Assembly (NCBI GenBank): GCA_007124045.1
Contig: SLFX01000034.1
Span: 1 to 50,415, forward strand
DNA: 50,415 nucleotides
Direction: 5' to 3'
Source: Candidatus Delongbacteria bacterium
GTDB lineage: Bacteria > UBA4055
Within the stretch, counting starts at the first letter, position 1, and each line of letters starts with the position of its first letter. Below the pieces are notes generated by a model. It saw only the letters and a list, made by a program, of their open reading frames with translations. It was not told the origin of the DNA and did no database searches. Shown here piece after piece: positions 6,381 through 21,717 of the stretch. Position numbers and translations under genes: made by a program.

Positions 6381-6496
6381 ATATTCTTAGAACCCGGCTT
6401 ATGATCCCATATTTTAGTTTTATTTGCTTTTATTTACCGGTATATTGATTTATATTGTTATGAACTAACAGGTCTGATCTAATGCCGGAGGATAAA

Positions 6497-7786
6497 ATGG
6501 GAACAGATTCATACAATCCTTTCAGAACCGCTCAGAAACAATTTGACAGAGCAGCCATTATCCTGAATCTTGATAGCGCAAGCAAAGATCTTCTGCGAAT
6601 ACCCATGAAAGAATTTCATTTCAGTATACCTGTCCGGATGGATGACGGGTCGAAAAAGATCTTCAGAGGCTACAGGATCATGCACAACAACGCAAGAGGC
6701 GCAGCCAAGGGTGGAATAAGGTTCCACCGGCACGAATCTGTCGATTCGTTAAGGGCTCTTTCCATGCTGATGAGCTGGAAGACTGCAGTGGCTGACCTGC
6801 CTCTGGGAGGAGCATACGGCGGAGTGGAATGCGACCCGAGAGACCTTTCCGAAAATGAACAGGAACAGATATGTAGAGGCTATGTCAGACAGAATTTTAA
6901 TAATATGGGTCCTGAAATCGATGTACCTGCACCTGATCTTATGACCAATGCCATGCACATGCTCTGGATGCTCGATGAGTACGAAACTATGACAGGAAAA
7001 AGAACACCCGGTTTTATTACGGGTAAGCCCGTAGAAATGGGGGGCTCGCTCGGTAAAAAAGAAGCTACCGGTTACGGGGTAATGCTCTGTGTCCGTGAAG
7101 CTTTGAAGGAACTCAGTATCAGTCCGTCAAAGACCTCAGCAAGTTTTCAGGGATTCGGTAATGTAGCACAGAACGCAATAGACCTGTATCAGAAAATGGG
7201 CGGAAAAATCGAATGCATTTCGTGCCTGGACAGAAAAGAAATGAAAGAGATATCCTATTCCAAAGCTGGAGGAGTTATACCTGATGAATTAAGAAAGGTT
7301 ACCGATCCTTTCGGAGGGATAGACAAAAAAAAGGCGGAGGATCTCGGCTACGAGGCAGAGTATAACGACGCGTGGATGAAAAAAGAAGTGGATATTCTTG
7401 TCCCGTGCGCCATAGAAAATCTTATAACTGAAGCAAACTATTCTTCCATACCAGAATCTGTCAAAATTATTGCGGAAGGGGCAAACAGTCCCATCAACCC
7501 GAAGGCGGAAGAAATTCTCGAAAAACAAAATAAGATAAAAATAATACCTGACATACTTGCAAATTCGGGCGGAGTAATATGCTCCTACTTCGAACAGGTG
7601 CAGTCGAACATGAATTATTACTGGGACAAGAACGAGGTTTTCGCAAAACTAGATCAGAAAATAACATCAGCTTATGTATCTGTAAGCGATTTTGCTGTTA
7701 AAAACGGGATCAGTATGCGGGAATCCGCATTTATCATAGCTGCGGAAAGAGTTGCTGATGCCTGCAGAGAAAGAGGTTGGGTATGA
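6497..7786 (+). CDS. Glutamate dehydrogenase-family (ELFV) protein with Tyr in place of the catalytic Lys
   Basis: Family motifs present: AAKGGIRFH, SWKTAV, DVPAPDL, FQGFGNVAQ, EGANSPINP and PDILANSGGVICSYFEQVQS. The active-site glycine-rich motif reads LPLGGAYGGVECDP, with codon TAC at 6815-6817. The start is set at ATG 6497 because GGAGG lies at 6487-6491; the ORF track starts at ATG 6482. Confidence 0.85.
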   Translation: MGTDSYNPFRTAQKQFDRAAIILNLDSASKDLLRIPMKEFHFSIPVRMDDGSKKIFRGYRIMHNNARGAAKGGIRFHRHESVDSLRALSMLMSWKTAVADLPLGGAYGGVECDPRDLSENEQEQICRGYVRQNFNNMGPEIDVPAPDLMTNAMHMLWMLDEYETMTGKRTPGFITGKPVEMGGSLGKKEATGYGVMLCVREALKELSISPSKTSASFQGFGNVAQNAIDLYQKMGGKIECISCLDRKEMKEISYSKAGGVIPDELRKVTDPFGGIDKKKAEDLGYEAEYNDAWMKKEVDILVPCAIENLITEANYSSIPESVKIIAEGANSPINPKAEEILEKQNKIKIIPDILANSGGVICSYFEQVQSNMNYYWDKNEVFAKLDQKITSAYVSVSDFAVKNGISMRESAFIIAAERVADACRERGWV

Positions 7787-9519
7787 AAGAATTCGACTTT
7801 CTCTCTTCGGTGGGCGATAACAGGAAAAACGATTCTCCTCCTGTAAAACTTGTAGGAACCGGAGAACCGGGAGGAAAAGCTAAGGGGCTTCTGAATGCTT
7901 TTGATCTCGTCACAGAACTTAACAAAAAAGGTGATTTTCCTTCTGTGACTGTTGAAATACCCGGTTTTATTGTGGTTCAGACAGGCGTTTTTGATCTTTT
8001 TATGAGAATGAATAATTTGTACGAAACTGCTTACAGCGACGAAGATGATGACAGGATAGCATATAAATTCCAAAAAGCTGATCTGCCCTTTGAAATACTT
8101 AAAGATTTAAGGGAAATGATCATAAACATAAATTCTCCGGTCGCAGTAAGATCATCGGGGCTTTTGGAAGATGCAAAATATGAACCGTTCGCAGGCATAT
8201 ACGCCACAAAAATGCTTCCTAACAACCAAACTGACCCTGATGAAAGATGCAGGAAACTTTTTGAAGCTGTAAAACTCGTCTATGCCTCCACATTTTTTAA
8301 AGCACCCAAAAATTATATGAAATCTACAGGATATCAGATCCGGGATGAAAAAATGGCGGTTATCGTTCAGGAAGTACTCGGAAAAAAACACGGTGAAAGT
8401 TTTTATCCTGACATTTCGGGTGTCGCAAAATCGTTCAACTTTTACCCTATGGGTAGATCAAAGCCTAAAGACGGAGTCGTAAGTCTTGCTGTGGGATTAG
8501 GTAAAACCATAGTTGACGGCGGAGTAACTTGGACTTATTCGCCCCAGGATCCAGAACAGTCTCCCCCGTTCGGATCCGTTGACGATATGCTGAAAAACAC
8601 TCAGACAAGGTTTTGGAATATAAAACTGTCCGAACCTGAAGAATTCGATCCTCTGTGCGAAACAGAATTTATGACAGAGTCGGAAATATCTGAAGCCGAT
8701 AAGGATAAATCGCTCAGTATAAGCGCTTCCACGCTTAATGAATCAGGAAGAGTTTCTCCAGGAACAGGTTCCGACGGCCCCAGAATAATCAATTTTGCAC
8801 CGGTTTTAAAGCTTGAACTCCTTCCTCTGAACGATCTTGTAAAAGAGATTCTAAATTTATGCTCAAGAAAATTTGATACCCCTGTCGAGATCGAGTTCGC
8901 TCTGACCTGTGAAGGTGAAGGATATGATGTTTCCGCAAGGTTCGGTTTCCTTCAGGTGAGGCCTATGGTTGTTTCCGACGCGGATATTACTGTTACAGAT
9001 AATGAGTACGATGATGAAAATAATCTTATATCTTCCGAATTCGTTCTGGGAAACGGAAGTTTTTCGGACATAAAAGACATAATTTATGTAAAACCTGATA
9101 CATTTGAGGCCAGGAACACGCAAAAGATCGCTCTTGAAATTGCAAAGTATAATGAAAAACTTACTATCGAAAAAAGAAAATTCCTTCTCATAGGATTCGG
9201 CAGATGGGGAAGCTCGGACAGTTGGCTGGGTATTCCTGTCAACTGGGGGCAGATCTCGAATGTCCACACTATTGTCGAGGCCGGACTTCCCAACATGAAT
9301 GTCGAGCTGAGTCAGGGTTCGCATTTTTTCCATAACATGACAAGTTTCGGGGTAAATTATTTCTCCGTTCCCGCATATTACGAAAAAATGATCAGTTGGG
9401 ATATATTAAAAGATCAGAAAGTATCATCAGAATCAGAGAATGTTATTCATATAAGTTTAAATAAACCTATGCTCGTCAAAATTGACGGAAAAACCGGAAG
9501 AGGGTATATAAAGCTTTAA
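7783..9519 (+). CDS. Orphan PPDK_N-type ATP-grasp protein, minimal core paralog (ATP-grasp plus conserved C-terminal G[ST]HFF module; no PEP/pyruvate TIM barrel)
   Basis: Motifs: GGKAKGL, PVAVRSSGLLEDAKYEPFAGIYAT, MAVIVQEV, VGLGKTIVDG, PVEIEFA...FLQVRP. These are followed by LLIGFGRWGSSDSWLGIPV and SQGSHFFHN. ATG 7783 overlaps the GDH-like stop (ATGA) and AAGAGG lies 6 nt upstream. The track start is TTG 7777. Confidence 0.85.
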   Translation: MKEFDFLSSVGDNRKNDSPPVKLVGTGEPGGKAKGLLNAFDLVTELNKKGDFPSVTVEIPGFIVVQTGVFDLFMRMNNLYETAYSDEDDDRIAYKFQKADLPFEILKDLREMIININSPVAVRSSGLLEDAKYEPFAGIYATKMLPNNQTDPDERCRKLFEAVKLVYASTFFKAPKNYMKSTGYQIRDEKMAVIVQEVLGKKHGESFYPDISGVAKSFNFYPMGRSKPKDGVVSLAVGLGKTIVDGGVTWTYSPQDPEQSPPFGSVDDMLKNTQTRFWNIKLSEPEEFDPLCETEFMTESEISEADKDKSLSISASTLNESGRVSPGTGSDGPRIINFAPVLKLELLPLNDLVKEILNLCSRKFDTPVEIEFALTCEGEGYDVSARFGFLQVRPMVVSDADITVTDNEYDDENNLISSEFVLGNGSFSDIKDIIYVKPDTFEARNTQKIALEIAKYNEKLTIEKRKFLLIGFGRWGSSDSWLGIPVNWGQISNVHTIVEAGLPNMNVELSQGSHFFHNMTSFGVNYFSVPAYYEKMISWDILKDQKVSSESENVIHISLNKPMLVKIDGKTGRGYIKL

Positions 9520-9539
9520 TTTTAAGAAGAAATTTTTAA

Positions 9540-12500
9540 ATGAAGAAAAAAGATTCGGTCGATAAGATCATAAGGGATCTCAGAGAAAGGGCTAAGGAGA
9601 TAAAATGTCTTTATCAGGTCCAGGAGGTTTTGAGCGATCAGACCTTAAAATCAGATGAGCTCTGCAAAAAAATAGTAAAACTTATACCTCCGGGTTTTCA
9701 GTATCCCGATGTTTGTGCATCAAAAATAGTTCTGGGAAACAAAAAATACACCGATAAAAAATTCGATGAAACCGAATGGGAACTCGGGGCGGATATTGAA
9801 ATCAGAGGCGAAAAATCAGGACGGATATGCGTTTTTTATACGGAAGAAAGGCCTTTGGAGGATATTGGTCCCTTTCTTAAAGAGGAAAGAAAACTTCTTA
9901 ACTCAATTGCTGACCAGATGTCAATGCAGCTTCTTCACAACCAGCTTAAAACTGTGTTTGAGGAAGGAAAACTCCAGAGCACGGAAAAGAAAAGTGAATG
10001 GTGGATCATACTCGATCTGCTAAAAAGAACAGATCCGAGACTCTTGGTTAATATTGCGCAGAAAATGCTTAATTATCTCTGTCTGAACGCCGTATCGGAA
10101 GCAGAAAGCTTTATTGAAGAGTTCAATCCTTCCTTTAAAAAAAAGACAGAGCTTTTTAAGGATAACAATTTCCCGATGTCCGTTATAGAAACAAGCGACA
10201 TTTTTAACAAGAGCAACCATGTTTTTGATATCGCTTCCAGAAATCTCAGCGAAAACGAAATTTTGGATATAATTCAAAAATGGATCAAAGAAGACAGATC
10301 GAACTTCATGGTCAACATCCTGGAAAATACAGGATCGTCACTGCCTGACATCTCCAACGCCATCGAAAGATATCACCATTTATCCAGCCAGGGACTAGAA
10401 TTATCGGTACCTAGAGCCAAGAGTTTCAGGGTCGCTCTGACAAGGCGGGTTCTTACAGACCAGCCCGGATTCGTTAAGATCGCAAAAGAAAATGTGAAGG
10501 TTGACGATTTCAACGGTCTGATGAAAGTTATCATTCATCCTGCACGCAGCCACGGTAAGGTTGGAGGAAAAAGCAGCGGTCTTTTTCTTGCCGAAAAAAT
10601 TCTGAAAAATTCCGGACCGGACAGTAAATCTCTAAAAAATATTAAATTCCCCAAATCATGGTACATTACATCAGACGGTCTTTTAGAATTCATAAAGTAC
10701 AACAGCCTTGAAGATATAGTTGAACAGAAATATAAGGACATCGGTCAGGTACGCCAGGAATACCCTTATGTTGTTCAAGTATTTAAAAATTCAACATTCC
10801 CACCAGATATCGTAAAAGGTCTTACTCTGGCACTGGATGATCTTGGAGACAGACCTCTTATCGTCAGAAGTTCAAGTCTTTTGGAGGACAGATTCGGCAC
10901 AAGTTTCGCCGGAAAATATAAAAGTCTTTTCATTGCTAACATTGGAAGCCGTGAGGAAAGGCTTGAAAGCCTTACAGGCGCGATCGCCGAGATCTATGCT
11001 TCGACATTCGGACCCGAACCGATAGAATACCGAAATGAGCACGGCCTGATAGATTACCTTGAAGAGATGGGAATAATCATTCAGCAAGTCGTGGGAAACA
11101 GGATCGGAGATTATTTTCTGCCGTCTTTTGCAGGTGTGGCCTTTGGAAACAATGAATACAAATGGTCTCCCAGACTGGATAAAGAAGACGGGCTTATAAG
11201 GGTTGTTCCGGGGCTAGGTACCAGAGCGGTCGATCGGATCTCTGACGACTATCCTGTTCTTATATCGCCGGGAAAACCGGATTTAAGTGTTAATGCAAGC
11301 ATTGAAGAAAAAATCAAATATTCACCAAAAAAAGTGGATCTTATAAATCTGAAGTCAGGCAAATTTGATACAGTGGATCTTTCGGACCTTCTCTTTGATC
11401 ACGGCAATAACTTTCCCTGGATAGAGAACATGGTCTCTGTAGTTGAAGAAAAGTATCTGAGACCGCCAAAAAAAATCGGACATGACTATAAAAACAATTA
11501 TCATCTTGCAACATTTGAGGGTCTGAAATCAGGATCAGTATTTCTCTCACAGATAAAATTGCTCCTCGGAATATTCAGGGAAAAGTATAGCGGACCAGTA
11601 GATATTGAATTCGCTTCTGACGGTAAAGATCTGTATCTTCTCCAATGCCGTCCGCAAAGTTTTTCAAAGGACAGCCGTCCCGCCGTAATACCTGAAGACA
11701 GTTTTGAGAATGATATTCTTTTTTCCGCAGAAAAACATGTTCCTAACGGAACTGTTCAGGATATAACTCATATAGTCTATGTTGATCCTGATAAATACCC
11801 GTCTCTTTCCACTTTCGAAGAACTTTATGAAACGGGCAGAATTATCAGCAAACTCAATAAAATACTTCCCAAAAGACAATTTATCCTGATAGGTCCGGGA
11901 AGATGGGGCAGCAGAGGAGACATAAAACTCGGAGTCAGTGTTACATATTCTGACATTAACAACACCGCAATGCTGATAGAGATTGCAAAAAAACGAAAAG
12001 AATTCATTCCCGATCTCTCTTTCGGCACACATTTTTTTCAGGATCTTGTAGAGGCTGATATAAAATATTTGCCGCTGTATCCTGATTCAGATACAATATT
12101 GAATGAGAAGTTTCTAAAAAACTCTAAGAACATACTTCCGTCTCTTGTACCAGATCTGTCTGCCGAGCTTCAAAATACCGTAAGAGTTATAGACATTCCT
12201 TCTGAATCAGAAGGGAAAGAGCTTCATGTATATATGAATTCTGAAATCCAGAAAGCAGTGGGTATAATATCGGAATCTTCAACAATATCTTCTTTTGACC
12301 CTGAAGAAACAGAAAACAGAAAAGTTCTTAACAGTGATTTCCACTGGAAGTGGAGATTATCTTATGTGAAAGAAATTGCTTCTTCGATTGACGGAGAAAA
12401 GTTCGGGGTAAAAGCGTTCTATATTTTCGGGAGTGTAAAAAACGCTACCGCAGGACCCGCGAGCGACATAGATATACTTATACATTTTTGCGGAAACACC

Positions 12501-12713
12501 AGTCAGAAGAATGATCTTGAAATGTGGCTGAACGGTTGGGACAGATCTCTCGTCATGATAAATTATTTAAGTACCGGAAATAAGACCGATAATATTCTGG
12601 ATATTCACTACATTACAGATAAAGATATAAAGAATCGAACTTCTTACGCTGTTAAGATCGGTGCTCACACTGACCCGGCAAGACCGTTGGAGATAAAAAG
12701 ACCTGCTAAATAA
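9540..12713 (+). CDS. Multidomain paralog: sensor-like N-terminus, PPDK_N ATP-grasp, G[ST]HFF module and a C-terminal Pol-beta-type nucleotidyltransferase
   Basis: 1057 aa. Motifs: GGKSSGL, PLIVRSSSLLEDRFGTSFAGKYKS, MGIIIQQV, PVDIEFA...LLQCRP, ILIGPGRWGSRGD and SFGTHFFQD (His codon 12030-12032). The C-terminal YIFGSVKNATAGPASDIDILIH matches the hG[GS]-x(9-13)-DhD nucleotidyltransferase signature (DID at 12465-12473). Confidence 0.85.
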   Translation: MKKKDSVDKIIRDLRERAKEIKCLYQVQEVLSDQTLKSDELCKKIVKLIPPGFQYPDVCASKIVLGNKKYTDKKFDETEWELGADIEIRGEKSGRICVFYTEERPLEDIGPFLKEERKLLNSIADQMSMQLLHNQLKTVFEEGKLQSTEKKSEWWIILDLLKRTDPRLLVNIAQKMLNYLCLNAVSEAESFIEEFNPSFKKKTELFKDNNFPMSVIETSDIFNKSNHVFDIASRNLSENEILDIIQKWIKEDRSNFMVNILENTGSSLPDISNAIERYHHLSSQGLELSVPRAKSFRVALTRRVLTDQPGFVKIAKENVKVDDFNGLMKVIIHPARSHGKVGGKSSGLFLAEKILKNSGPDSKSLKNIKFPKSWYITSDGLLEFIKYNSLEDIVEQKYKDIGQVRQEYPYVVQVFKNSTFPPDIVKGLTLALDDLGDRPLIVRSSSLLEDRFGTSFAGKYKSLFIANIGSREERLESLTGAIAEIYASTFGPEPIEYRNEHGLIDYLEEMGIIIQQVVGNRIGDYFLPSFAGVAFGNNEYKWSPRLDKEDGLIRVVPGLGTRAVDRISDDYPVLISPGKPDLSVNASIEEKIKYSPKKVDLINLKSGKFDTVDLSDLLFDHGNNFPWIENMVSVVEEKYLRPPKKIGHDYKNNYHLATFEGLKSGSVFLSQIKLLLGIFREKYSGPVDIEFASDGKDLYLLQCRPQSFSKDSRPAVIPEDSFENDILFSAEKHVPNGTVQDITHIVYVDPDKYPSLSTFEELYETGRIISKLNKILPKRQFILIGPGRWGSRGDIKLGVSVTYSDINNTAMLIEIAKKRKEFIPDLSFGTHFFQDLVEADIKYLPLYPDSDTILNEKFLKNSKNILPSLVPDLSAELQNTVRVIDIPSESEGKELHVYMNSEIQKAVGIISESSTISSFDPEETENRKVLNSDFHWKWRLSYVKEIASSIDGEKFGVKAFYIFGSVKNATAGPASDIDILIHFCGNTSQKNDLEMWLNGWDRSLVMINYLSTGNKTDNILDIHYITDKDIKNRTSYAVKIGAHTDPARPLEIKRPAK

Positions 12714-13554
12714 GATATCTTTCAGCGGTGGTCGGATCGTCAATATCAAATACAACCGCTGCAAGCTCTTTGCCGTCATGGGCGGCTGAAAACATTTCTG
12801 TTCTGCCGATACGGTCTCTCCACGAACCCGTTATGCGTGCCGATTCGTGAATGTGACCGTGTAGGGTAAGAAACGGCTGCTTTTCTTCTATGAATTCTCT
12901 CACCGCAATACTGCCGACATGAACATCAAGCGGAGCAGAATCATAAAATTTTCCGTCAAGCGCCGCCCTGTCCAAAGCCGTTTTATAAGGGGGTGTATGA
13001 AAAAGCATAATATGATCCGAAACATCTTCCTCCGAAAACATTTTCTCCAGATCTTTTTTTATTGTGGTATTTCTTGCAACCTCCGGCTCCTGATCGTATG
13101 TCCTTATTCCCTCCTCAGGAGAAATGCATCCGGGATCTACATATCTTGAAACATCATATTTTTCCCAGTCTTTCAGAAGGAAAGGGGTAGGCGGTATGTA
13201 TGAATATCCGAAGACTGTTCTTCCTTTAAAAACGATCTTTTTATTATGAGAATAGCTCCAGAGTCCTTTTTTCTCCGCCATAATAATCTTATTTTCATCT
13301 CTTTTACTGTCATCGTTACCAAGAATAATAAATACAGCCGGATATTTTTCCCGCATTGATCTTTTTAAAACCAGAAAATTTGATATTACAGTTTCTTCAA
13401 TAAAATCGACAGGTGATTCCCCTCTAAAACCCGAAGGCAGAATATCCCCGCCTATAAAAACCGCGTCAGGTTTTTCCAAAAAAATAAATTCGAGCAGTTT
13501 TTTATATCTGTGTGTGCTTCCGTGCAGATCTGATACGAACAGAGATTTTAGCAT
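12706..13554 (-). CDS. Calcineurin-like metallophosphoesterase
   Basis: 282 aa. Ordered motifs: SDLHG, GGDILP, LGNDD, LFHTPP and HGHIHES. Its 3' end overlaps the convergent 1057-aa gene by 8 nt. Confidence 0.85.
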   Translation of the reverse strand: MLKSLFVSDLHGSTHRYKKLLEFIFLEKPDAVFIGGDILPSGFRGESPVDFIEETVISNFLVLKRSMREKYPAVFIILGNDDSKRDENKIIMAEKKGLWSYSHNKKIVFKGRTVFGYSYIPPTPFLLKDWEKYDVSRYVDPGCISPEEGIRTYDQEPEVARNTTIKKDLEKMFSEEDVSDHIMLFHTPPYKTALDRAALDGKFYDSAPLDVHVGSIAVREFIEEKQPFLTLHGHIHESARITGSWRDRIGRTEMFSAAHDGKELAAVVFDIDDPTTAERYLI

Positions 13555-13663: not shown

Positions 13664-16630
13664 ATGCAAATTTCTGAACCGGACACTGACTTTAGAAGAT
13701 CTTTTCCCGAAGAACCATTCGAAAATCTTATGATGAAAAGAATATCAGAAGTTCTTTTGATCTGCAACGAATATGACGCATTTATGCTCGAAGAGGATGG
13801 TAGGATCGAGGAAAAAGTATTCAAAGAATACTCCTCTCTGCACCTGAGGTTTTCACCGCATTTCAACAGAGCATCATCTCTTAAGGATGCTCTCGAACTG
13901 ATGAAGAAAAAGAATTTTGATCTTATTATAACCCTCCATAACTCAGGTTCGCTTGATGCTTTCGGTACAAATTTAAAAATTAAAAGAGCATATCCCGATA
14001 AGACGACCGTTGTTCTGACCCCTTTCTCGAGAAATATCATGACCCTGAAAGATATTGAGAAAATAAATCCATCATCGGACTATGTTTTCTCATGGCTGGG
14101 CGATACGAGCATACTTGTAGCTATCATTAAGCTGATCGAAGATAAAATGAATGTTGATGATGATATTTCATCAGCCGGTGTACAGGTTATACTTTTAATT
14201 GAAGATTCGATCAGGTACTATTCAAGCTACCTTCCCGTACTTTACCAAACCATATTCGATCAGACTCTGCATGTAATGAACGAAAATCTGAACGATCATC
14301 AGAAAAACTTAAGAATGAGAGGAAGGCCGAAAATACTGCATGTAACAAATTACGAAGAAGCGGTAAGGCTTTACAAAAAATACAGAACCAATATTCTCGG
14401 AATCATATCAGATGTAGAATTCCCTAAAGGCAAAACCATCAACAAACATGCCGGAATAGATCTTTGCAGAGAGATAAGGAAAGACAACCCTTACATACCG
14501 TTTTTAATACAGTCCTCGATAAACGACAACCAGATCAAAGCGGAGCGTAGCGGAGCGGCTTTTATAAATAAGCAGTCAGAAAATATTTTAAATGACATCT
14601 CTTCATTTGTCAGTGAGAATTTCGGTTTCGGAGAATTCAGTTTTAAAAATACTGCAAACGGAAAAATAATCAAAAAGGCTTCAAACCTGAAAGAGCTTCA
14701 AAAAGGTATTGAGACTGTCCCTTTAAAATCCCTTCTGATGCATGCGGAAAGAAATGATTTTTCCAAATGGCTTAGAGCAAGAACCCTTTTTAATCTGGCC
14801 TCTGTATTAAAACCAAAAAGAATAAATGATTTTTCAGAACCTGCTGAGGTAAGAAATTATATGTCCGGCGTTATCGAAAATTACAGAAGATCAAGCTCTA
14901 TCGGAACCATAGTAAACTTTTCAGGGACCGGATATGATGAGCTGTCGGGCTTTTCCAGGATCGGTAACGGCTCTATTGGTGGAAAGGCGAGAGGACTGGC
15001 ATTTATGAACAGGGTCCTAAAAACAAAACGCAAGAGCTATTTTTATTACAATATCGTCATCTCTATCCCCCAAACTGTAGTTCTTGCTACTGATATATTC
15101 ACGGAATTTATGGATAGCAACGGTCTCTACCCCGTAGCATTTTCAGATTCGGAAAACCATATTCTGCTCGATGAGTTTTTAAAAGCTTCTCTTCCTGAAT
15201 ATGTTATGGAGGAGTTAAAGGTTTTTCTTACAGGCAATAAAAAGCCTCTGGCCGTCAGATCATCCAGTTTGCTGGAAGACTCATACTATCAGCCTTTTGC
15301 AGGTATATATTCCACCTACATGATCTCAAACAACAGCAGGGATTTTGATAAAAGGCTTTCAGAACTTGTCCAGGCCGTAAAATGCGTTTATGCATCCACT
15401 TATTTTAAGGGAAGCAAAAAATATCTAAAAGCTACCAGAAATGTAATCGAAGAAGAAAAAATGGCCGTTGTGATCCAGAACATTTCCGGTTCGAGGCACG
15501 GTCATACATGGTATCCGACCTTTTCCGGTGTCGCAAGATCTGTAAACAACTATCCTGTAGGCTATGAGAAACATAATATCAGCATAGCTAATATCGCGGC
15601 AGGTCTCGGTAAAACCATTGTTGACGGGGAAGTGTCTTTAAGATTCTCACCTTCTTTTCCGAATAATATCATACAGATGACATCAGCGGATTATGCACTA
15701 AAATATACTCAGAAACATTTTTATGCACTCAGCCTCAAGACTTCCTCTTTCAAAGCTGTAGAAAACGACAGTGCCAACCTTATTAAAAGAGATATTCATG
15801 AAGGTGTAAAAGAAGGTGCTTTTAATGCTGTCGTTTCAACATACGATCATCAAAGCGGCATTATAAGAGATACTGACGACTTTCCAGGACCTAAAATAGT
15901 AAGTTTCGGAAATATCCTGAAGAGAGAGACTTTCCCCCTGAGCAGGATACTTCTTGACCTGCTTTCTAATCTGGAAAAAAGTATGAACAACCCGGTTGAA
16001 ATGGAGTTTGCTGTCAATATTGACCCGGAGGGGCTTAACCACTCTTTCGATCTCCTTCAGGCAAGACCTGTGTCTTCAAATTTCGAATCCTCAAATATTG
16101 ATATATCAGAACTTGACAACGATCAGGCAATAATCAAATCATTTTCATCACTCGGAAACGGTCTAATAAACAACATCAGAGACATTGTTTACATCGTACC
16201 TGAAAAATTCGATCCTGCGAAGACAAGAGATATCGCCTCAACGATAAAGACACTGAACAAAAAATTCATGGATAAGAACAGGAATTATATTCTCATAGGA
16301 CCGGGAAGATGGGGAACTTCAGATCCGTGGCTCGGAATACCCGTAAGGTGGGAAGATGTTTCACAGGCTTCGGTAATAATTGAGGCCGGGCAAAAAGATT
16401 TTGTTGTTCAGCAAAGTCAGGGTTCGCATTTCTTCCATAATATCACGACTTTTGGTGTTTTTTACTTTTCTATCAACCCGTTTTTGAAAGACGGTTTTTA
16501 TGACCTGGATTTTCTCGCACAATTTAAGCCTGTATTTGAGGATGATTTTATCCGTCATATATGCTTTAAAAAGCCCCTTACGGTCAAAACAGACGGCAGA
16601 TTTGGACACGGTATAGTCCTAAAACCATAA
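13664..16630 (+). CDS. Pseudo-receiver plus receiver plus PPDK_N ATP-grasp plus G[ST]HFF module protein (paralog C)
   Basis: The N-terminal domain has LLICNEYD/DLIITLHN (degenerate receiver). The second domain has ILLIEDS, ILGIISDVEFP (Asp codon 14411-14413), PFLIQSS and FINKQS. The core has GGKARGL, PLAVRSSSLLEDSYYQPFAGIYST, MAVVIQN, GLGKTIVDG, PVEMEFA, ILIGPGRWGTSDPWLGIPV and SQGSHFFHN. The start is set at ATG 13664 with GGAG at 13653-13656; the track start is TTG 13658. Confidence 0.85.
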   Translation: MQISEPDTDFRRSFPEEPFENLMMKRISEVLLICNEYDAFMLEEDGRIEEKVFKEYSSLHLRFSPHFNRASSLKDALELMKKKNFDLIITLHNSGSLDAFGTNLKIKRAYPDKTTVVLTPFSRNIMTLKDIEKINPSSDYVFSWLGDTSILVAIIKLIEDKMNVDDDISSAGVQVILLIEDSIRYYSSYLPVLYQTIFDQTLHVMNENLNDHQKNLRMRGRPKILHVTNYEEAVRLYKKYRTNILGIISDVEFPKGKTINKHAGIDLCREIRKDNPYIPFLIQSSINDNQIKAERSGAAFINKQSENILNDISSFVSENFGFGEFSFKNTANGKIIKKASNLKELQKGIETVPLKSLLMHAERNDFSKWLRARTLFNLASVLKPKRINDFSEPAEVRNYMSGVIENYRRSSSIGTIVNFSGTGYDELSGFSRIGNGSIGGKARGLAFMNRVLKTKRKSYFYYNIVISIPQTVVLATDIFTEFMDSNGLYPVAFSDSENHILLDEFLKASLPEYVMEELKVFLTGNKKPLAVRSSSLLEDSYYQPFAGIYSTYMISNNSRDFDKRLSELVQAVKCVYASTYFKGSKKYLKATRNVIEEEKMAVVIQNISGSRHGHTWYPTFSGVARSVNNYPVGYEKHNISIANIAAGLGKTIVDGEVSLRFSPSFPNNIIQMTSADYALKYTQKHFYALSLKTSSFKAVENDSANLIKRDIHEGVKEGAFNAVVSTYDHQSGIIRDTDDFPGPKIVSFGNILKRETFPLSRILLDLLSNLEKSMNNPVEMEFAVNIDPEGLNHSFDLLQARPVSSNFESSNIDISELDNDQAIIKSFSSLGNGLINNIRDIVYIVPEKFDPAKTRDIASTIKTLNKKFMDKNRNYILIGPGRWGTSDPWLGIPVRWEDVSQASVIIEAGQKDFVVQQSQGSHFFHNITTFGVFYFSINPFLKDGFYDLDFLAQFKPVFEDDFIRHICFKKPLTVKTDGRFGHGIVLKP

Positions 16631-16724: not shown

Positions 16725-16753
16725 TTGACATTAAATTGCGGTGTCTATATATT
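16725..16753 (+). promoter_or_regulatory. Near-consensus sigma70 promoter for gdhA
   Basis: TTGACA (16725-16730), a 17-nt spacer, then TATATT (16748-16753). A tandem TTGAATT TTGAATT (16752-16765) lies immediately at and after the -10 element. Confidence 0.6.
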
Positions 16754-16790
16754 GAATTTTGAATTGAAAAATGAAACAGACAAAAAAACA

Positions 16791-18182
16791 ATGGAGGCCG
16801 TCATGCCTAAACTCGCAAAGAAGTACATGGACATTCTGATCTCAAAGGATCCGAATCAGCCTGAGTTCCTTCAGGCTGCTCAAGAAGTGATTGATACTAT
16901 TATTCCGGTACTCGAAAAGCATCCGGAATATGTTGAAGCAAAGATCGTCGAAAGGATTATCGAGCCTGAAAGAGTGATACTTTTCAGAGTGCCCTGGGCC
17001 GATGACAAGGGAAAAGTACAGGTCAACAGAGGTTTCAGAATTGAATACAACAGTGCTCTCGGACCCTACAAGGGCGGAATGAGGTTCCATCCCAGCGTGA
17101 ATTTGAGTATTCTGAAATTTCTGGGATTCGAACAGATCTTCAAAAACTCCCTCACTACTCTGCCGATGGGCGGTGGAAAAGGCGGATCGGATTTTGACCC
17201 GAAAGGAAAATCTGATAACGAGGTAATGCATTTCTGCCAGAGTTTCATGAACGAACTTTACAGGCATATAGGTCCCAATACTGATGTACCTGCAGGTGAC
17301 ATCGGTGTAGGCGGCAGAGAGATCGGATTTATGTTCGGTCAGTACAAAAAGATCGTAAATGAGTTTACGGGAGTTTTTACCGGAAAAGGAAGGAACTGGG
17401 GCGGATCACTGATTCGACCCGAAGCTACAGGATACGGAGAGGTCTATTTTGCACAGAATATGCTCGCCGAGAAAAAAGATTCTATTAAAGGAAAGACCGT
17501 CGCTGTAAGCGGATCGGGCAATGTATGTCAGTACGCTATTCAGAAAGTCAATGAACTGGGCGGAAAATGTATTTCAATGTCTGATTCAACGGGAACAATA
17601 ATCGACCTGAACGGCATCGATGACAAGAAGTGGAAATATCTGATGGAGCTCAAGAACATTAAGAGAGGAAGGGTTAAAGAATATGCCGTAAAATTTAAAG
17701 GTGCAAAAGTAAAATATTACGAAGGAAAAAGTGTTTGGGATGTAATTAGGGACCAGAAAATAAAGGTTGATATCGCTTTACCGTCCGCTACACAGAATGA
17801 GATCGATGCCAGCCATGCTAAAGCATTGGTGAAATACGGGTGTAAAGTGGTCTCGGAAGGAGCAAATATGCCTTCTCTTCCCGAAGCACAGGATATATTC
17901 ATAAAAAACAGAGTCCTTTACGGTCCCGCAAAAGCTGCCAATGCAGGCGGTGTTGCGACTTCAGGACTTGAAATGAGCCAGAACTCTTTGAGAATGTCGT
18001 GGACAAGAGAAGAGGTTGACGGTCATTTGAAAAGGATCATGAAAGACATTCATGACAACTCCATGGCTGCTGCACTCAAATATGCTCCGGAGAAAGACGG
18101 ATACATAAACTATATGGCAGGTGCGAACATTGCAGGATTTATCAAAGTTGCCGATGCAATGATGGATCAGGGAGTCGTTTAA
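16791..18182 (+). CDS. gdhA: Canonical NAD(P)-dependent glutamate dehydrogenase (E. coli/Clostridium GdhA type)
   Basis: Motifs: [49 protein letters not shown] (catalytic Lys codon 17178-17180), [24 protein letters not shown] and SEGANMPS. The track start TTG 16725 coincides with the -35 box, so ATG 16791 is preferred (ATG 16803 is also possible). Confidence 0.92.
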
Positions 18183-18202
18183 TCCAATTTTTTTATTTTA
18201 TC

Positions 18203-18229
18203 AAAAAGGCGGTGCACCGCCTTTTTTTA
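18203..18229 (+). terminator. Rho-independent terminator after gdhA
   Basis: AAAAA GGCGG tgca CCGCC TTTTTTT: a perfect GC-rich hairpin followed by a 7-T run, 20 nt after the stop. Confidence 0.85.
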
Positions 18230-18252
18230 TGCCAAAATTTTTTTTTTTTATC

Positions 18253-18280
18253 TTGATAAATATTATTTTAACCGTAAAAT
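18253..18280 (+). promoter_or_regulatory. Candidate sigma70 promoter for paralog D
   Basis: TTGATA (18253-18258), a 16-nt spacer, then TAAAAT (18275-18280). GGAGA Shine-Dalgarno lies before ATG 18306. Confidence 0.45.
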
Positions 18281-18305
18281 ACAAGTAATTAAACGGAGAA
18301 GTCTT

Positions 18306-21287
18306 ATGGAACTCTATGATATAAAGGATTTTGGAACAGAAAAGTACTATTTCAAAGAAGAACCATTTGGTAAACTGATGCAGAAAAGGATAAAGGATGT
18401 TCTTCTTATCTGCAGCAAATATGACCAGTTCCTTTTAGAGGTTGACGGAAGAGTGGATGAAAAGATATTTCAGGAATATGTCTCATTAAGTATCAGATAC
18501 CCGCCGCAGTTCACACAGGTTTCGAACCAGTCGGAGACATTCAGGGCTCTAAGAAAAAAAAAATACGACCTTATCATATCCATGGTAAATCTGGGAGACA
18601 TTGAACCTTTTGAGCTTGCCGATAAAATTTATGATAAATATCCCCAAATTCCGATCGTTGTTCTGACGCATTTTTCCCGCGAGGTGTCAAAATTTCTTGC
18701 CGATAAAGACCTGTCCCATATAGATTATGTCTTCTCCTGGTTGGGAGATTCAAGCATTCTTCTCGCTATTATAAAGCTTATTGAAGACAAGATGAACGCC
18801 GAACATGACATTAAGAAAGTAGGATCTAACTGCATACTGCTGGTTGAAGACTCTATCAGATACTATTCCAGCTTTCTGCCCAATATGTATAAGATACTTT
18901 ACGGCCAGACCAGGGATCTGATGGCAGAAGGACTTAACGAACATCAAAAGACAATGAGAATGAGGGCAAGAGCAAAGATACTGTTGGCAAATAATTATGA
19001 ACAGGCTCTGAAAATATACTCAAAATACAAGGATAATCTTCTTGGAATAATCACTGATGTAACTTACAAAGTAAGAGGTAAGGAGAATTTAAAAGCGGGA
19101 ATAAAGCTGGCAAATAAGATACGGAAAGAAAGTCCCCACCTGCCCATCCTTATTCAGTCTTCAAATCCGGACTTTAGATCTGAAGCCGAAAGCCTCAATA
19201 CTTCTTTTCTTTATAAACATTCTAAAACTCTTCTCAATGATATCAGAGAATTCATAAAAGCAAATTTCGGATTTGGTGATTTTGTCTTCATTGACCCTTC
19301 TGACGGCAGCGAAGTTACGAGATCTTCAGATCTGAGGGATCTGCAAAACCGGATCGAGACTATTCCTCCAGAATCTTTAGAATATCACTCTGTTAATAAT
19401 CATTTTTCAAAGTGGTTCAAAGCACGCGCTTTATTCACACTGGCGGATATGGTAAGGAATAAGACCAAAGAGGATTTCGACAGTATTGAGTCTGTAAGAG
19501 AGTATATGTACAAAACTATTAAGAATTACAGGATACATTCGTCGAAAGGAACCATCGCGGTTTTCGATAAGGATTTTTACGATGACTACTACGGTTTTAC
19601 CCGTATAGGAAAGGGCTCTTTGGGAGGAAAAGCCAGAGGTCTTGCATTTATTTCATCATTTTTAAAAGAAAAAAAGTTGAACTATAAATATCCTGGTATT
19701 ATTATCAACATACCAAAAACGATAGTTCTCACAACTGAAGTGTTTGAAGAGTTCATGACCATCAATGATCTTCATGATTTCGCACTTTCCGATATTGATG
19801 ATAACAGAATACTTGAATATTTCCTTAAAGCTGACCTGCCACCCTCGTTAAAAGAAGATCTATACTGCATTCTATCATACATAAGAACACCTCTTGCCGT
19901 CAGATCGTCAAGCCTTCTGGAAGATTCATATTTTCAGCCTTTTGCAGGAATTTATACGACATATATGATCCCCAACAATAATCCGAATATAAATGTCAGG
20001 ATGAAAGAACTCTCAATGGCAATCAAAGGGGTTTTCGCATCAACATTTTTCAAATTCAGCAAAGACTATATGCAGGCTACACACAATGTGATCGACGAAG
20101 AAAAAATGGCGGTGATAATACAGGAGGTTGCGGGAAATCTTTATAATGATAAAGCTGGTCAGGCAAGGTTTTATCCCACAGTTTCGGGAGTGGCAAGGTC
20201 TTTGAACTTCTATCCGGTGGGGGATGAAAAACTGGAGCATGGCGTAGTCAACATTGCGCTTGGTCTGGGAAAAACTATAGTTGACGGCGAAACTTCTCTA
20301 AGGTTCTCGCCCAAAACGCCAAAAAAAATTCTGCAGATATCAAACCCCGAAATGGCGCTGAAAAATACTCAGAAAAATTTCTATGCAATAGATATGAGCA
20401 AGAACTTCAATGCGACATCAAATGAAAAAGACAATCTTTTAAATCTTGATATAGCAGAGGCTGATAAAGACGGATGTCTGGGCTTGCTTGCATCAACTTA
20501 TGATCTTTATAACAGAGTGATGATCGACGGTATATCTGAGAAAGGAAAAAGAGTTCTGACATTTGATCCAATATTAAAATACGATATGTTCCCTCTGGCA
20601 GAAATTGTAAATACTCTCCTTGAACACGGCTCTGAAGAAATGAATTCCCCGGTTGAAATAGAATTCGCGGCAGAATTGGACAAACCTTCCGACAAACCGA
20701 AAGTTCTCAGATTTTTACAGATAAGACCGATCGTTCACGGTTTGGAATACAGCGATGTTATGATCACTGAACAAGAAAAGGAAGATGCTGTTCTTTCGTC
20801 TGTCCACTCTCTGGGAAACGGAAATGTAAAAGACATAAAGGATATTGTTTATATCAAACCGGACTCTTTCAACGCTGCCCATACAGTCAGGATAGCTGAA
20901 ATGCTGGATGAGATCAATAAAAAATTCGTAAGTGAGAACAAGCAGTATATTCTTATTGGTCCGGGAAGATGGGGCAGCTCTGATCCATGGCTTGGAATAC
21001 CGGTCAAATGGCCGCAGATTTCAAATGCTAAAGTTATTGTTGAGCACGGACTTAAACGCTTTCATATAGATCCGAGCCAGGGTTCGCACTTTTTTCAAAA
21101 CATTACTCTGCTAAAGGTCATATACTTTACTATTAATCCCTATCTTAAAGAAGGTGTGATAGACATTCCTTTACTGGATAAAATGGAAGCAATATATGAA
21201 AATGAGTTTTTTAGACATGTGAGATTTGAAAACGAACTGACAGTTAAAGTAAACGGTATGACCGGAGAAGGTATTGTAGCGCATTGA
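18306..21287 (+). CDS. Pseudo-receiver plus receiver plus PPDK_N ATP-grasp plus G[ST]HFF module protein (paralog D)
   Basis: 993 aa, collinear with paralog C. Motifs: LLICSKYD/DLIISMVN, ILLVEDS, LLGIITDVTY (Asp codon 19056-19058), PILIQSS, GGKARGL, PLAVRSSSLLEDSYFQPFAGIYTT, MAVIIQEV, GLGKTIVDG, PVEIEFA, ILIGPGRWGSSDPWLGIPV and SQGSHFFQN (His codon 21087-21089). Confidence 0.88.
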   Translation: MELYDIKDFGTEKYYFKEEPFGKLMQKRIKDVLLICSKYDQFLLEVDGRVDEKIFQEYVSLSIRYPPQFTQVSNQSETFRALRKKKYDLIISMVNLGDIEPFELADKIYDKYPQIPIVVLTHFSREVSKFLADKDLSHIDYVFSWLGDSSILLAIIKLIEDKMNAEHDIKKVGSNCILLVEDSIRYYSSFLPNMYKILYGQTRDLMAEGLNEHQKTMRMRARAKILLANNYEQALKIYSKYKDNLLGIITDVTYKVRGKENLKAGIKLANKIRKESPHLPILIQSSNPDFRSEAESLNTSFLYKHSKTLLNDIREFIKANFGFGDFVFIDPSDGSEVTRSSDLRDLQNRIETIPPESLEYHSVNNHFSKWFKARALFTLADMVRNKTKEDFDSIESVREYMYKTIKNYRIHSSKGTIAVFDKDFYDDYYGFTRIGKGSLGGKARGLAFISSFLKEKKLNYKYPGIIINIPKTIVLTTEVFEEFMTINDLHDFALSDIDDNRILEYFLKADLPPSLKEDLYCILSYIRTPLAVRSSSLLEDSYFQPFAGIYTTYMIPNNNPNINVRMKELSMAIKGVFASTFFKFSKDYMQATHNVIDEEKMAVIIQEVAGNLYNDKAGQARFYPTVSGVARSLNFYPVGDEKLEHGVVNIALGLGKTIVDGETSLRFSPKTPKKILQISNPEMALKNTQKNFYAIDMSKNFNATSNEKDNLLNLDIAEADKDGCLGLLASTYDLYNRVMIDGISEKGKRVLTFDPILKYDMFPLAEIVNTLLEHGSEEMNSPVEIEFAAELDKPSDKPKVLRFLQIRPIVHGLEYSDVMITEQEKEDAVLSSVHSLGNGNVKDIKDIVYIKPDSFNAAHTVRIAEMLDEINKKFVSENKQYILIGPGRWGSSDPWLGIPVKWPQISNAKVIVEHGLKRFHIDPSQGSHFFQNITLLKVIYFTINPYLKEGVIDIPLLDKMEAIYENEFFRHVRFENELTVKVNGMTGEGIVAH

Positions 21288-21297
21288 TCGGTTTATA

Positions 21298-21717
21298 ATG
21301 GAGGCCAGAATGAAATTATGCAGAGAATGCAAAAACGAAGTTTCAGAATCGGCGCAGATATGTCCAAAATGCGGGGCTCCCAAGCCGTCTCTGGAAAAAT
21401 GGGACGGTTACGGATTCGAGTATAAAAGCAGGCTCGGAATAATGGGTTTGCCTCTGATCCATGTTTCCTTCAAATATACTGCGAACAGAACGCCGGTAGT
21501 AGCGAAGGGGATTATTGCGGTAGGCCAGTTCGGGATCGGTGTTATAAACATATCGCAGTTCGGGATCGGCATTCTGAGCGCCGGTCAGTTCACGCTGGGT
21601 ATGTATGCCCTCGCGCAGTTCGGCTTTGCCTACTCCCTGATAGCTCAGTTCGGTCTCTACATCGAGTCCGGCTATGGACAGATGGTGTGGAAACTGGCTG
21701 AATTATTGGGCAGGTAA
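21298..21717 (+). CDS. Zinc-ribbon protein with a C-terminal hydrophobic QFG-repeat region
   Basis: 139 aa. CRECKN-x10-CPKCG zinc ribbon. It is followed by five repeats of about 10-11 aa (GQFGIGVI, SQFGIGIL, GQFTLGMY, AQFGFAYS, AQFGLYIE), visible as recurring cagttcgg in the DNA (about 21515-21670). The start is uncertain (ATG 21298 or 21310). Confidence 0.6.
   Translation: MEARMKLCRECKNEVSESAQICPKCGAPKPSLEKWDGYGFEYKSRLGIMGLPLIHVSFKYTANRTPVVAKGIIAVGQFGIGVINISQFGIGILSAGQFTLGMYALAQFGFAYSLIAQFGLYIESGYGQMVWKLAELLGR

Follow-up and report, generated by a model that had tools for sequence, protein, structure and literature searches.

The 50,415-nt window analyzed here, from a Candidatus Delongbacteria bacterium, harbors a cluster of four paralogous ATP-grasp proteins (A to D) and two glutamate dehydrogenases (GDH1 and GDH2). 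The evidence points to an undescribed, ATP-driven system that probably controls or cooperates with glutamate dehydrogenase (GDH), in which the four paralogs would make up a GDH-dedicated enzyme family joining a PPDK_N-type ATP-grasp domain to a new C-terminal alpha/beta domain. No published description of this family was found in the literature.

Gene content of the cluster

Open reading frames for all eight cluster genes (Table 1) were found where the original prediction had placed them, and the ATGA overlap between the GDH1 stop and the A start, which it had taken as translational coupling, was read directly in the DNA. The metallophosphoesterase that it had described as convergent is borne out by a minus-strand Pfam Metallophos match (PF00149, 48.9 bits), and the stop region of this gene shares 8 nt with that of B. 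The flanking genes that had been included in the same picture, a NuoE/NuoF/GltD-like/NfnA/NfnB-like operon upstream of the cluster and a small Zn-ribbon protein, are indeed present, but they are not conserved parts of the system. A tblastn search of 160 related loci detected no counterpart of the Zn-ribbon protein, and Nfn/Bfu-like genes were present at only about 5 of 80. Being absent from, or rare at, related loci, both are local neighbors outside the core of the system.

Table 1. Features of the GDH-linked cluster, in nucleotide positions of the window unless given as residues (aa)
Feature	Position	Strand	Description
GDH1	6482..7786	+	hexameric-type glutamate dehydrogenase homolog, ~430 aa; Pfam ELFV_dehydrog_N and ELFV_dehydrog
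Paralog A	7783..9519	+	578 aa, bare core: PPDK_N ATP-grasp aa 30-403; C-module aa ~401-578, nt 8983-9516
Paralog B	9540..12713	+	1057 aa
B, predicted GAF-like sensor	aa 1-135, nt 9540-9944	+	
B, helical linker	aa ~140-335	+	
B, PPDK_N ATP-grasp	aa 340-718	+	
B, C-module	aa 721-907, nt 11700-12260	+	
B, minimal Pol-beta-type nucleotidyltransferase	aa ~935-1057, nt ~12342-12710	+	motif FGSx9DIDIL
Metallophosphoesterase, convergent	12706..13554	-	282 aa; Pfam Metallophos
Paralog C	13664..16630	+	988 aa: pseudo-receiver, receiver, DUF5752-like segment aa 325-409
C, PPDK_N ATP-grasp and C-module	aa 437-811; C-module nt 16091-16627	+	
GDH2	16725..18182	+	NADP-type GdhA-like glutamate dehydrogenase, intact GGGKGG motif
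Paralog D	18306..21287	+	993 aa: pseudo-receiver, receiver, DUF5752-like segment
D, PPDK_N ATP-grasp and C-module	aa 438-826; C-module nt 20751-21284	+	
Zn-ribbon protein, small	21298..21717	+	one hydrophobic Gly-rich segment (hydrophobicity scan); sub-threshold Pfam zinc-ribbon matches

The ATP-grasp core

The PPDK_N domain (PF01326) was detected by Pfam in all four paralogs, which score 117-183 bits (cut-off, 27). As originally proposed, the proteins share a core of approximately 550 residues, which aligns over its full length with 29-42% identity to A (49% between C and D), and the sequence motifs that had been listed for it are all present and invariant in the four paralogs. The residues of PPDK that bind the nucleotide and Mg are all retained, and the PPDK_N catalytic residues (Lys, Arg, Glu, Gln and Arg) are fully conserved. 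Foldseek searches with the AF2 model of A (pLDDT 79.7) returned rifampin phosphotransferase (5hv1/5hv3, E-value ~1e-13, also given as 4e-13) and HpeI (9goj, 3e-10) as best structural matches, together with PpsA and PPDK (2ols and 1kbl), and all of these span the ATP-grasp part only. An hhalign comparison likewise matched residues 23-381 of E. coli PpsA (82.7% probability). Homology and structure searches thus place these proteins in no characterised family, in keeping with their initial designation as orphans.

Databases name relatives of these proteins 'phosphoenolpyruvate synthase' or 'pyruvate phosphate dikinase-like', and these names speak for ordinary PEP synthase/PPDK paralogs. This reading, which we group with chance clustering beside gdh, is extremely improbable. 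No PEP-utilizers or PEP-utilizers_C domain was found by Pfam in any cluster protein, no paralog matched the PEP/pyruvate TIM barrel (PF02896), and A ends 175 residues past its ATP-grasp domain. NCBIfam matches (PigC/RedH/PEP-synthase) are partial and far below cut-off, with PEP-synthase models scoring 17-60 bits against cut-offs of 500-1000. Because the paralogs lack the swivel His domain as well as the TIM barrel, they cannot make PEP, and the original view that they are not ordinary PpsA/PPDK holds.

The same matches raise the main rival to a regulatory role. Under this alternative, A and B (and likewise C and D) phosphorylate or otherwise activate a metabolite at the GDH node, for instance 2-oxoglutarate or glutamate; the product becomes a nucleotidyl derivative through the B nucleotidyltransferase, the phosphodiesterase recycles that derivative, and GDH supplies or consumes the substrate. 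Like pyruvate, 2-oxoglutarate belongs to the alpha-keto acids. Small-molecule-phosphorylating enzymes provide the nearest matches to the ATP-grasp half (rifampin phosphotransferase, HpeI and PpsA, with partial matches to PigC/RedH/PEP-synthase), and the characterised PPDK_N enzymes without a TIM barrel (rifampin phosphotransferase, PigC, HpeHI/phenylphosphate synthase and glucan water dikinase) all phosphorylate non-protein substrates, which weighs against protein modification. We nonetheless consider this alternative unlikely, and the evidence on either side of it is given below where it arises.

The C-terminal module

All four paralogs share a C-terminal domain of 180 residues (C-module), consistent with the family-specific module noted originally. 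Its structure is confidently modeled (pLDDT 90.6), and it had no match in Pfam, PDB sequences or PDB folds (best fold E-value, 0.11), suggesting a new alpha/beta domain. The best fold matches fall short of significance; they are to alpha/beta domains that bind nucleotides (KdpD USP with c-di-AMP and the CPS allosteric region). The swivel phospho-histidine domain (PF00391, G-G-x-T-S-H) was not matched by any of 16 C-modules even at E <= 10, a PDB profile search with the C-module returned nothing, alignment by hhalign to the swivel domains of PpsA and PtsI reached a probability of 0.4%, and no swivel domain was found in any conserved neighbor of the paralog genes. The C-module contains an invariant His within a flexible S-x-G-x-H-F-F loop. 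Since this proposed phospho-His carrier is no recognisable swivel domain, phosphotransfer through it is a conjecture. The lack of a phospho-His swivel domain and of the substrate-binding domain of known dikinases also argues against phosphorylation of a small molecule.

Conservation of the linkage to gdh

The survey of gene neighborhoods revealed that the association of the core with gdh, nucleotidyltransferase and phosphoesterase genes extends across many phyla, and is hence not lineage-specific. The GDH1 gene lies directly upstream of A in 62 of 71 genome loci, B directly follows A in 59 of 63, and the gdh-A-B order spans over 10 phyla, with identities of 48-65%. By chance, gdh would be expected in well under 1% of 10-gene neighborhoods; synteny with gdh in approximately 90% of A-type loci across phyla leads us to reject coincidental clustering. 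In most cases, the A gene overlaps or directly adjoins the B gene, and A-B fusions occur as single proteins of 1523-1654 residues in three separate 50%-identity clusters. The ancestral unit may have comprised gdh-A-B and the convergent phosphodiesterase, with A and B operating as one complex.

Some of these features would also suit metabolism. The co-directional, translationally coupled gene order resembles that of a pathway operon, and sequence conservation is very high; cross-phylum identities of 50-60% are seen more often among metabolic enzymes than among regulators, which counts against a regulatory function. On the other hand, the module has no other pathway enzyme or transporter as a conserved neighbor.

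The two glutamate dehydrogenases

Both GDH1 and GDH2 contain the two ELFV dehydrogenase domains (Pfam), and GDH1 has its closest PDB relatives in the GDHs of Thermococcus, Pyrococcus and Thermotoga (~1e-99). GDH1 retains the fold and the substrate-binding positions, but the active-site lysine, as defined by PROSITE PS00074 (G-G-[SAG]-K-x-G), is replaced by Tyr112 in G-G-A-Y-G-G, as seen in both the motif and the DNA. This lysine is conserved in GDH2 and in 57 of 63 GDH1 orthologs, and absent in six. Lysine-less GDH1 proteins have been retained with A/B in seven sequences, through several independent losses, and a GDH2 gene is found nearby in five of these seven, versus 2 of 57 that keep the lysine (Fisher p = 5e-5). 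This retention argues that A/B may need the GDH-fold protein itself, not its product alone, and it counts against the small-molecule pathway. GDH2 matches NCBIfam PRK09414 with 730.9 bits (cut-off 536). Its true start is probably near 16791, rather than at the TTG at 16725, and a promoter-like site (16725-16753) falls within the extended reading frame. In this cluster, GDH1 is probably a ligand-binding partner or scaffold, with catalysis performed by GDH2.

Accessory domains of paralog B and the phosphoesterase

The sensor-like N-terminus originally ascribed to B is better described as a putative divergent GAF-like domain: 8 of 21 homologs match PF01590 (best 2.2e-5) and three match GAF_2, whereas the copy in the window has no match at E <= 1, nor does it match PDB sequences. 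The C-terminal nucleotidyltransferase is substantiated by PF01909 (NTP_transf_2; 30.9 bits, cut-off 21) and by F-G-S-x9-S-D-I-D-I-L and L-D-[IV]-H motifs invariant in 15-25 B orthologs, which fit the Pol-beta-type nucleotidyltransferase motif hG[GS]-x9-13-D-h-[DE]-h and supply its third carboxylate. Its closest solved relatives are weak matches (E >= 3e-3): kanamycin nucleotidyltransferase (KNTase, the best), TUTase and MNT. The first of these is a small-molecule enzyme, in line with a metabolic role. The five metal-binding motifs of calcineurin-like phosphoesterases (DxH, GD, GNx[DE], H and GHxH) are all conserved in 49 orthologs, as DxHG, GGD, GNDD, H and GHxHE. YfcE-type NCBIfam matches are weak, and the YfcE equivalog scores far below cut-off; the protein is thus assigned, by its motifs, to the calcineurin-like superfamily, with a YfcE/MJ0936-like pattern, rather than to YfcE itself. 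PADLOC models of anti-phage defence gave only short generic matches, on the nucleotidyltransferase and the phosphoesterase.

The phosphoesterase gene lies downstream of 43 of 50 B proteins with the nucleotidyltransferase, and of none of four without it (p = 0.001). This co-variation would count for regulation rather than plain metabolism, and it also resembles that of a synthase/hydrolase pair making and destroying a second messenger. The core might then sense or convert adenine nucleotides as an energy-charge sensor, with GDH co-regulated or allosterically tuned in the absence of covalent chemistry, as in Thermus, where GDH is tuned by a bound partner protein. The GAF and receiver inputs and the non-significant nucleotide-binding folds of the C-module would agree with such a role. 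We deem it improbable, given that A, C, D and the 913-residue variants of B all lack the nucleotidyltransferase, and with it the phosphodiesterase, so that the core function cannot be that of a messenger, and that the catalytic PPDK_N residues kept in every paralog point to turnover beyond binding.

Receiver-type paralogs C and D

As predicted, C and D each carry a pseudo-receiver followed by a receiver. In the first domain, Ser or Thr occupies the acceptor position (Ser in D), whereas the second conserves the features of a receiver: E-D in the acidic pocket, the acceptor Asp251 at the end of beta-3, Ser285 at beta-4 and Lys304 at beta-5 (numbered as in D), all of which are invariant across 26 sequences. 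Response_reg scores are above the Pfam cut-off of 30.2 bits for D (34.3) and below it for C (25-28). These paralogs provide a second, independent linkage: a gdhA-type gene lies within 6 kb of a C/D-type gene in 36 of 80 metagenome loci, and adjoins it directly in 27, most often divergently transcribed. C/D-type genes are exemplified beside three different GDH classes, the GAF-like module also occurs as standalone genes beside gdh-D, and in Bacteroides a receiver-type gene sits between two gdh genes. Fusion of the core to receiver and GAF domains, its pairing with three unrelated GDH classes and the variable, often divergent gene order suit a regulator and its target better than a metabolic pathway. 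About half of the C/D-type loci have no gdh inside the available flanks, an observation that runs against a GDH-directed role.

A proposed mechanism for GDH control

GAF-like and receiver fusions are typical of regulatory enzymes and would favor regulation over plain metabolism. From these domain and linkage patterns, we infer a signalling or modification role; sensor-controlled, ATP-dependent post-translational control of GDH is our tentative assignment, close to but short of an even chance. In such a scheme, ATP would be bound and cleaved by the ATP-grasp domains, the relevant residues being retained, and the phosphoryl group would pass to an acceptor, for which the invariant His of the C-module loop is the best candidate, and then to the GDH protein, or would be used to alter the GDH hexamer. 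A metabolite would set the activity of B through the GAF-like domain. The nucleotidyltransferase of B and the YfcE-like phosphodiesterase, cast as writer and eraser because they co-vary, would add and remove a nucleotidyl mark. C and D would serve the GdhA-type NADP-GDH likewise, under control of a phosphorelay.

Taken further, these proteins may represent a novel class of enzymes that use ATP to modify proteins, a 'protein dikinase' or phosphorelay combining PPDK_N with a new phospho-carrier, with B adding nucleotidylylation and a dedicated phosphodiesterase eraser, that reversibly switches GDH in many phyla and uses a catalysis-less GDH paralog as ligand sensor. This is possible, if rather doubtful. 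Many of the phyla concerned are not known to possess the enterobacterial GlnD/GlnE paradigm. The pairing with gdh recurs in human-gut Bacteroides, where Baggio and Morrison are said to have described trans-acting genes beside gdhA; such a class would account for that old report, a link offered only as a lead.

Comparison with known systems

Like rifampin phosphotransferase (RPH), PigC/RedH, phenylphosphate synthase/HpeHI and glucan water dikinase, the window proteins present an N-terminal ATP-grasp domain with GGK, VRSS, EIEF and LQxRP residues and no PEP/pyruvate TIM barrel. Unlike these RPH-type dikinases, they lack the PEP-utilizers swivel phospho-histidine domain and any known substrate-binding domain, bearing instead the 180-residue domain unmatched in the PDB and Pfam, GAF-like, receiver and nucleotidyltransferase fusions, and a genomic tie to gdh. 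With PpsA/PPDK they have the PPDK_N domain in common, but not the swivel His domain and TIM barrel.

The analogy with GlnE/GlnD (GS/PII), AceK (isocitrate dehydrogenase) and PpsR/PDRP (PpsA/PPDK) is functional only. It encompasses a gene beside that of a branch-point enzyme, a nucleotidyltransferase with a removing hydrolase and metabolite-sensor domains; E. coli ppsR, whose product modifies PpsA, lies divergent to ppsA, the arrangement also seen for D-type genes and gdhA. These covalent-modification regulators bear no sequence relationship to the window proteins save the generic Pol-beta nucleotidyltransferase fold, and we know of no bacterial modification system of this kind for GDH. In the GdhA/GdhB hetero-hexamer of Thermus thermophilus, an inactive GDH paralog acts as regulatory subunit, and a GDH from this species (PDB 3aoe) is among the PDB relatives of GDH1. 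Both systems keep a catalytically impaired GDH paralog beside an active one, but the two window GDHs come from different subfamilies, and GDH1, the impaired one, is tied to two ATP-grasp proteins.

Gene content of the window

The ORF list, combined with Pfam and NCBIfam scans, recovered every gene described in the original prediction. The start ATG of A, the first of the four paralogous PPDK_N ATP-grasp proteins (A-D), overlaps the stop codon of GDH1 in an ATGA. The listed ORF of the second glutamate dehydrogenase homolog, GDH2, opens with a TTG and exceeds its 445-aa homologs by about 40 aa (16725-16800); a strong sigma-70-like match (TTGACA-17-TATATT, 16725-16753) lies within this N-terminal extension, and the true start is probably an ATG near 16791. 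Promoter and terminator scans were uninformative.

Genes and gene clusters of the window
Feature	Positions	Strand	Description
Redox operon	148-6380		Five flavin/FeS genes directly 5' of GDH1: NuoE-like, NuoF-like, Fer2/Fer4/GltD-like fusion, NfnA-like, NfnB/GltD-like
GDH1	6482-7786	+	Glutamate dehydrogenase homolog
A	7783-9519	+	PPDK_N as sole domain (Pfam)
B	9540-12713	+	N-terminus without match, PPDK_N, NTP_transf_2 at C-terminus
Phosphoesterase	12706-13554	-	Metallophos; convergent with B
C	13664-16630	+	PPDK_N and receiver-like region
GDH2	16725-18182	+	NADP-GDH; PRK09414, 731 bits against a cut-off of 536
D	18306-21287	+	PPDK_N and receiver
Zn-ribbon protein	21298-21717	+	Small; single hydrophobic segment
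Polysaccharide biosynthesis cluster	29700-40053		Wzz-like, flippase-like, several GT2/GT4 glycosyltransferases, cytidylyltransferase
RimK-like ATP-grasp gene	33832-34875		Inside the polysaccharide cluster; no relation to the PPDK_N family
PhoU-domain gene region	42512-45582	-	PhoU-domain gene between two Na/Pi-cotransporter-family genes

A PPDK-type ATP-grasp core outside the PEP-utilising dikinases

The four paralogs can be aligned over a core of about 550 aa, with 29-42% identity to A and 49% identity between C and D, and their closest relatives (searched for A and D) come from Candidatus Delongbacteria, at 72-76% identity. The ATP/Mg-binding residues of PPDK (GGK, VRSS, E-x-E-F and L-Q-x-R-P) are invariant in all four, and on this sequence evidence the family is catalytically complete in its PPDK-type ATP-grasp domain. 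The AlphaFold model of A (pLDDT 79.7) matches rifampin phosphotransferase (E = 4e-13), HpeI, PpsA and PPDK through its ATP-grasp half, and a profile alignment (hhalign) with Escherichia coli PpsA spans residues 23-381 of PpsA, ending at the first swivel-domain strands.

Pfam detected neither PEP-utilizers nor PEP-utilizers_C domains in any of the four proteins, and the NCBIfam models for PEP-synthase, PigC and RPH returned 17-60 bits against cut-offs of 500-1350, with partial coverage confined to the ATP-grasp region. A pattern search located no genuine PEP-utilizers gene in the window or in 82 related loci. Since two of the three features that define PEP-utilising dikinases are missing from the family, filing it among them is unwarranted, and ordinary PEP synthase is excluded as an explanation. 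We rate these proteins as PPDK_N ATP-grasp enzymes whose architecture and partnership are unprecedented.

A conserved C-terminal domain

The ATP-grasp half is followed in all four paralogs by a domain of about 180 aa, here termed the C-module. The prior expectation was a diverged swivel phospho-His domain, with G-S-H-F-F presumably corresponding to T-S-H-A-A, or G-R-W-G-S to G-G-R-T-C-H, and every test of it was negative. No swivel domain was matched by Pfam in 16 copies at E <= 10, no match was returned by a PDB sequence-profile search, and hhalign against the swivel domains of E. coli PpsA and PtsI gave a probability of 0.4%. The high-confidence domain-only model (pLDDT 90.6, pTM 0.89) likewise found no significant fold match in the PDB (Foldseek; best E = 0.11, TM <= 0.33). 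The C-module is hence a domain without recognised relative; given that the full-length hhalign alignment reaches the first PpsA swivel strands, a very remote kinship may exist. A Rossmann GxGxxG reading of G-F-G-R-W-G was also rejected, Rossmann fold matches being absent.

Counted over 156 copies from clusters at most 50% identical, the pattern L-x-G-x-G-R-W-G, followed by G-x-P, E, S-x-G-x-H-F-F and Y, is at least 97% conserved, defining a new conserved domain with invariant His, Glu and Arg. Its profile matched, among 1.84 billion representatives, at least 2,267 clusters (50% identity), 1,557 of them at E <= 1e-10. The S-x-G-x-H loop is the region of lowest confidence in both the full-length A and the domain-only models, which would be compatible with a mobile catalytic loop.

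Sensor-like and nucleotidyltransferase domains

Residues 1-135 of B appear GAF-like: PF01590 was matched by 8 of 21 homologs (best 2.2e-5), the window copy remaining unmatched. The same module occurs fused to C/D-type, that is, receiver-bearing, proteins (representative protein P0286), and as standalone small genes. Such small genes adjoin D-type and gdhA-type genes at four related loci (L155:2794-4386, L099:3662-4102, and L095 and L098 at about 2550-2900), with three of them in tandem beside the gdh-D pair of L155. At its C-terminus, B carries a minimal nucleotidyltransferase of the Pol-beta type, in which the G-S-x9-D-x-D motif is intact. Weak matches to kanamycin nucleotidyltransferase, TUTases and MNT-type proteins are the best among solved structures. 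The motifs of the phosphoesterase (DxHG, GGD, GNDD, H and GHxHE) follow the YfcE/MJ0936 phosphodiesterase pattern.

Of the two receiver-like domains in C and D, the first has no acceptor Asp and the second presents the acidic pair, Asp251, Ser285 and Lys304; a DUF5752-similar segment follows. No histidine kinase was found nearby in the window. The family carries phosphorelay and putative metabolite-sensor inputs; that it would itself operate as a nucleotide-signal or allosteric sensor seems quite improbable to us.

Genomic linkage to glutamate dehydrogenase

With each species represented by a single genome, the scan identified more than 590 relatives of A. The best 80 loci span Calditrichota, Ignavibacteriota (including Melioribacter roseus), Bacteroidales, Zixibacteria, Acidobacteriota, Planctomycetota, Gemmatimonadota, Aminicenantes, Eisenbacteria, Krumholzibacteriota and others. 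Among the 71 loci with enough flank, 62 have a co-directional GDH1-type gene directly 5' of A, and B directly follows A in 59 of 63, the A and B genes usually overlapping or abutting. The module is present in both Melioribacter roseus and Caldithrix. Amino acid identities to the window proteins are 55-72% (GDH1), 48-64% (A), 46-58% (B) and 47-61% (phosphoesterase). Natural A-B fusions of 1523-1654 aa occur in three clusters mutually less than 50% identical (P0241, P0242 and P0243). A and B belong together, as do the nucleotidyltransferase and the phosphodiesterase: a phosphoesterase gene lies 3' of B in 43 of 50 loci with the nucleotidyltransferase versus none of four without it (p = 0.001), and in L070 a standalone 125-aa nucleotidyltransferase and a phosphoesterase sit immediately 3' of A. 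No fusion of the family to GDH was seen among the 150 best representatives. Homologs of NuoE/NuoF/NfnB were found near the gdh-A-B-phosphoesterase module in about 5 of 80 related loci (L003, L027, L035, L058 and L067), so the association of the redox operon with this module is weak and possibly lineage-specific.

The C/D subtype is as widespread (more than 8,000 matches, 53-55% identity), with representatives in Bacteroidales, Lentimicrobium, Lentisphaeria, Spirochaetales and Riflebacteria. A GdhA-type gene was detected within the flanks (<=6 kb) in 36 of 80 metagenome loci, directly adjoining the C/D gene in 27 of them, and in 19 of the 39 loci whose flanks reach at least 2 kb on either side. 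Divergent transcription is the most frequent layout (19 loci); one Pseudomonadota MAG shows the order gdh->D, and in contig ULMJ01005270.1 (L108), which has no nucleotide similarity to the window, a gdhA-type gene lies 2.5 kb 5' of the D-type gene. In a Lentisphaeria MAG (L088, MHBE01000001.1) the D-type gene sits between a 1046-aa large GDH and a 445-aa GDH, adjoined by a gene for a GAF-containing PtsP (EI-Ntr). Two Bacteroidales contigs showed no gdh near the C/D gene.

Exact-sequence look-ups placed D-type proteins in cultured gut species, namely Bacteroides xylanisolvens/ovatus, Phocaeicola plebeius (WP_007561130.1), Paraprevotella clara and Proteiniphilum. In Bacteroides xylanisolvens/ovatus-type contigs (L169-L171) the D-type gene has a gdh gene on either side (445 and 444 aa), one adjoined by malic enzyme, with apparent insertions (AAA_21/HNH, PCMD lipoproteins and a hipA-type toxin-antitoxin pair) between the D-type and gdh genes. 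An older study (Baggio & Morrison 1996, J Bacteriol 178:7212) reportedly described trans-acting genes adjoining gdhA in Bacteroides, and the D ortholog may be one of them. BT1971 was rejected as the relevant Bacteroides gene, as it encodes a catalase.

The family belongs with GDH, and chance clustering is excluded. That two core subfamilies are tied to three GDH classes in variable gene order speaks for a functional link with GDH itself rather than for inheritance of an operon. The original prediction, which saw in this cluster a multi-input signalling or modification system built around glutamate/2-oxoglutarate metabolism, survives on both points that bore on it: the proteins did not fall into a family characterised elsewhere, and their linkage to gdh is conserved.

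Loss of the active-site lysine in GDH1

In the window GDH1, the segment L-P-L-G-G-A-Y-G-G, whose GGAYGG part lies at 6806-6823 (codons 109-114), places Tyr112 where all active GDHs, GDH2 included, present the Lys of G-G-[GAS]-K-G-G, the active-site residue of PROSITE PS00074. This Lys is kept in 57 of 63 module-linked GDH1 orthologs and replaced by T, N, Y, N, S or Q in the other six. Each Lys-less sequence resembles its nearest Lys-bearing relatives at least as closely as it does the other Lys-less ones, indicating several independent losses. Glutamate- and cofactor-binding positions are conserved in the Lys-less proteins, which, from their sequences, probably bind ligands without catalysis. 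A GDH2-type gene is present in 5 of 7 Lys-less versus 2 of 57 Lys-bearing loci (p = 5e-5, uncorrected for phylogeny). On these observations, a Lys-less GDH-fold protein is retained alongside A and B as long as another GDH is nearby.

Such retention is hard to reconcile with GDH1 as a mere supplier of product, and agrees with GDH1 acting as a partner, a sensor or a target. A dikinase pathway acting on a small molecule, 2-oxoglutarate or glutamate, would agree with the phosphorylation of non-protein substrates by every characterised relative; we consider it unlikely. A defence-system reading was rejected.

A putative system for GDH control

GDH stands where carbon and nitrogen metabolism meet and is among the busiest enzymes of peptide-fermenting and gut bacteria; to our knowledge, its post-translational control is undescribed except in a few model systems. 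We tentatively propose, at somewhat below an even chance, that the family proteins draw on ATP to modify or remodel GDH. In this scheme the C-module would serve as the route of phosphotransfer, B would add a nucleotidyl mark that the phosphodiesterase takes off, and C and D would perform the same job on NADP-GDH under two-component control. Whether this would amount to a categorically new protein-modification system for GDH we regard as rather doubtful.

Full-text literature searches returned no description of the family, of which the two subtypes searched yielded more than 8,000 homologs each, with about 50% identity across phyla. The family is present in cultured human-gut Bacteroides, Phocaeicola and Paraprevotella, and a misleading 'PEP synthase' is its sole functional annotation. 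Once worked out, its chemistry would settle what thousands of genes do, establish a new protein domain and provide a handle on nitrogen and amino-acid metabolism of the gut microbiota, and could show how a PPDK-type ATP-grasp domain transfers phosphate in a new way. Functional precedents for the proposed control of GDH are found in GlnE/GlnD, AceK and PpsR, the last of which is encoded divergently from its own target.
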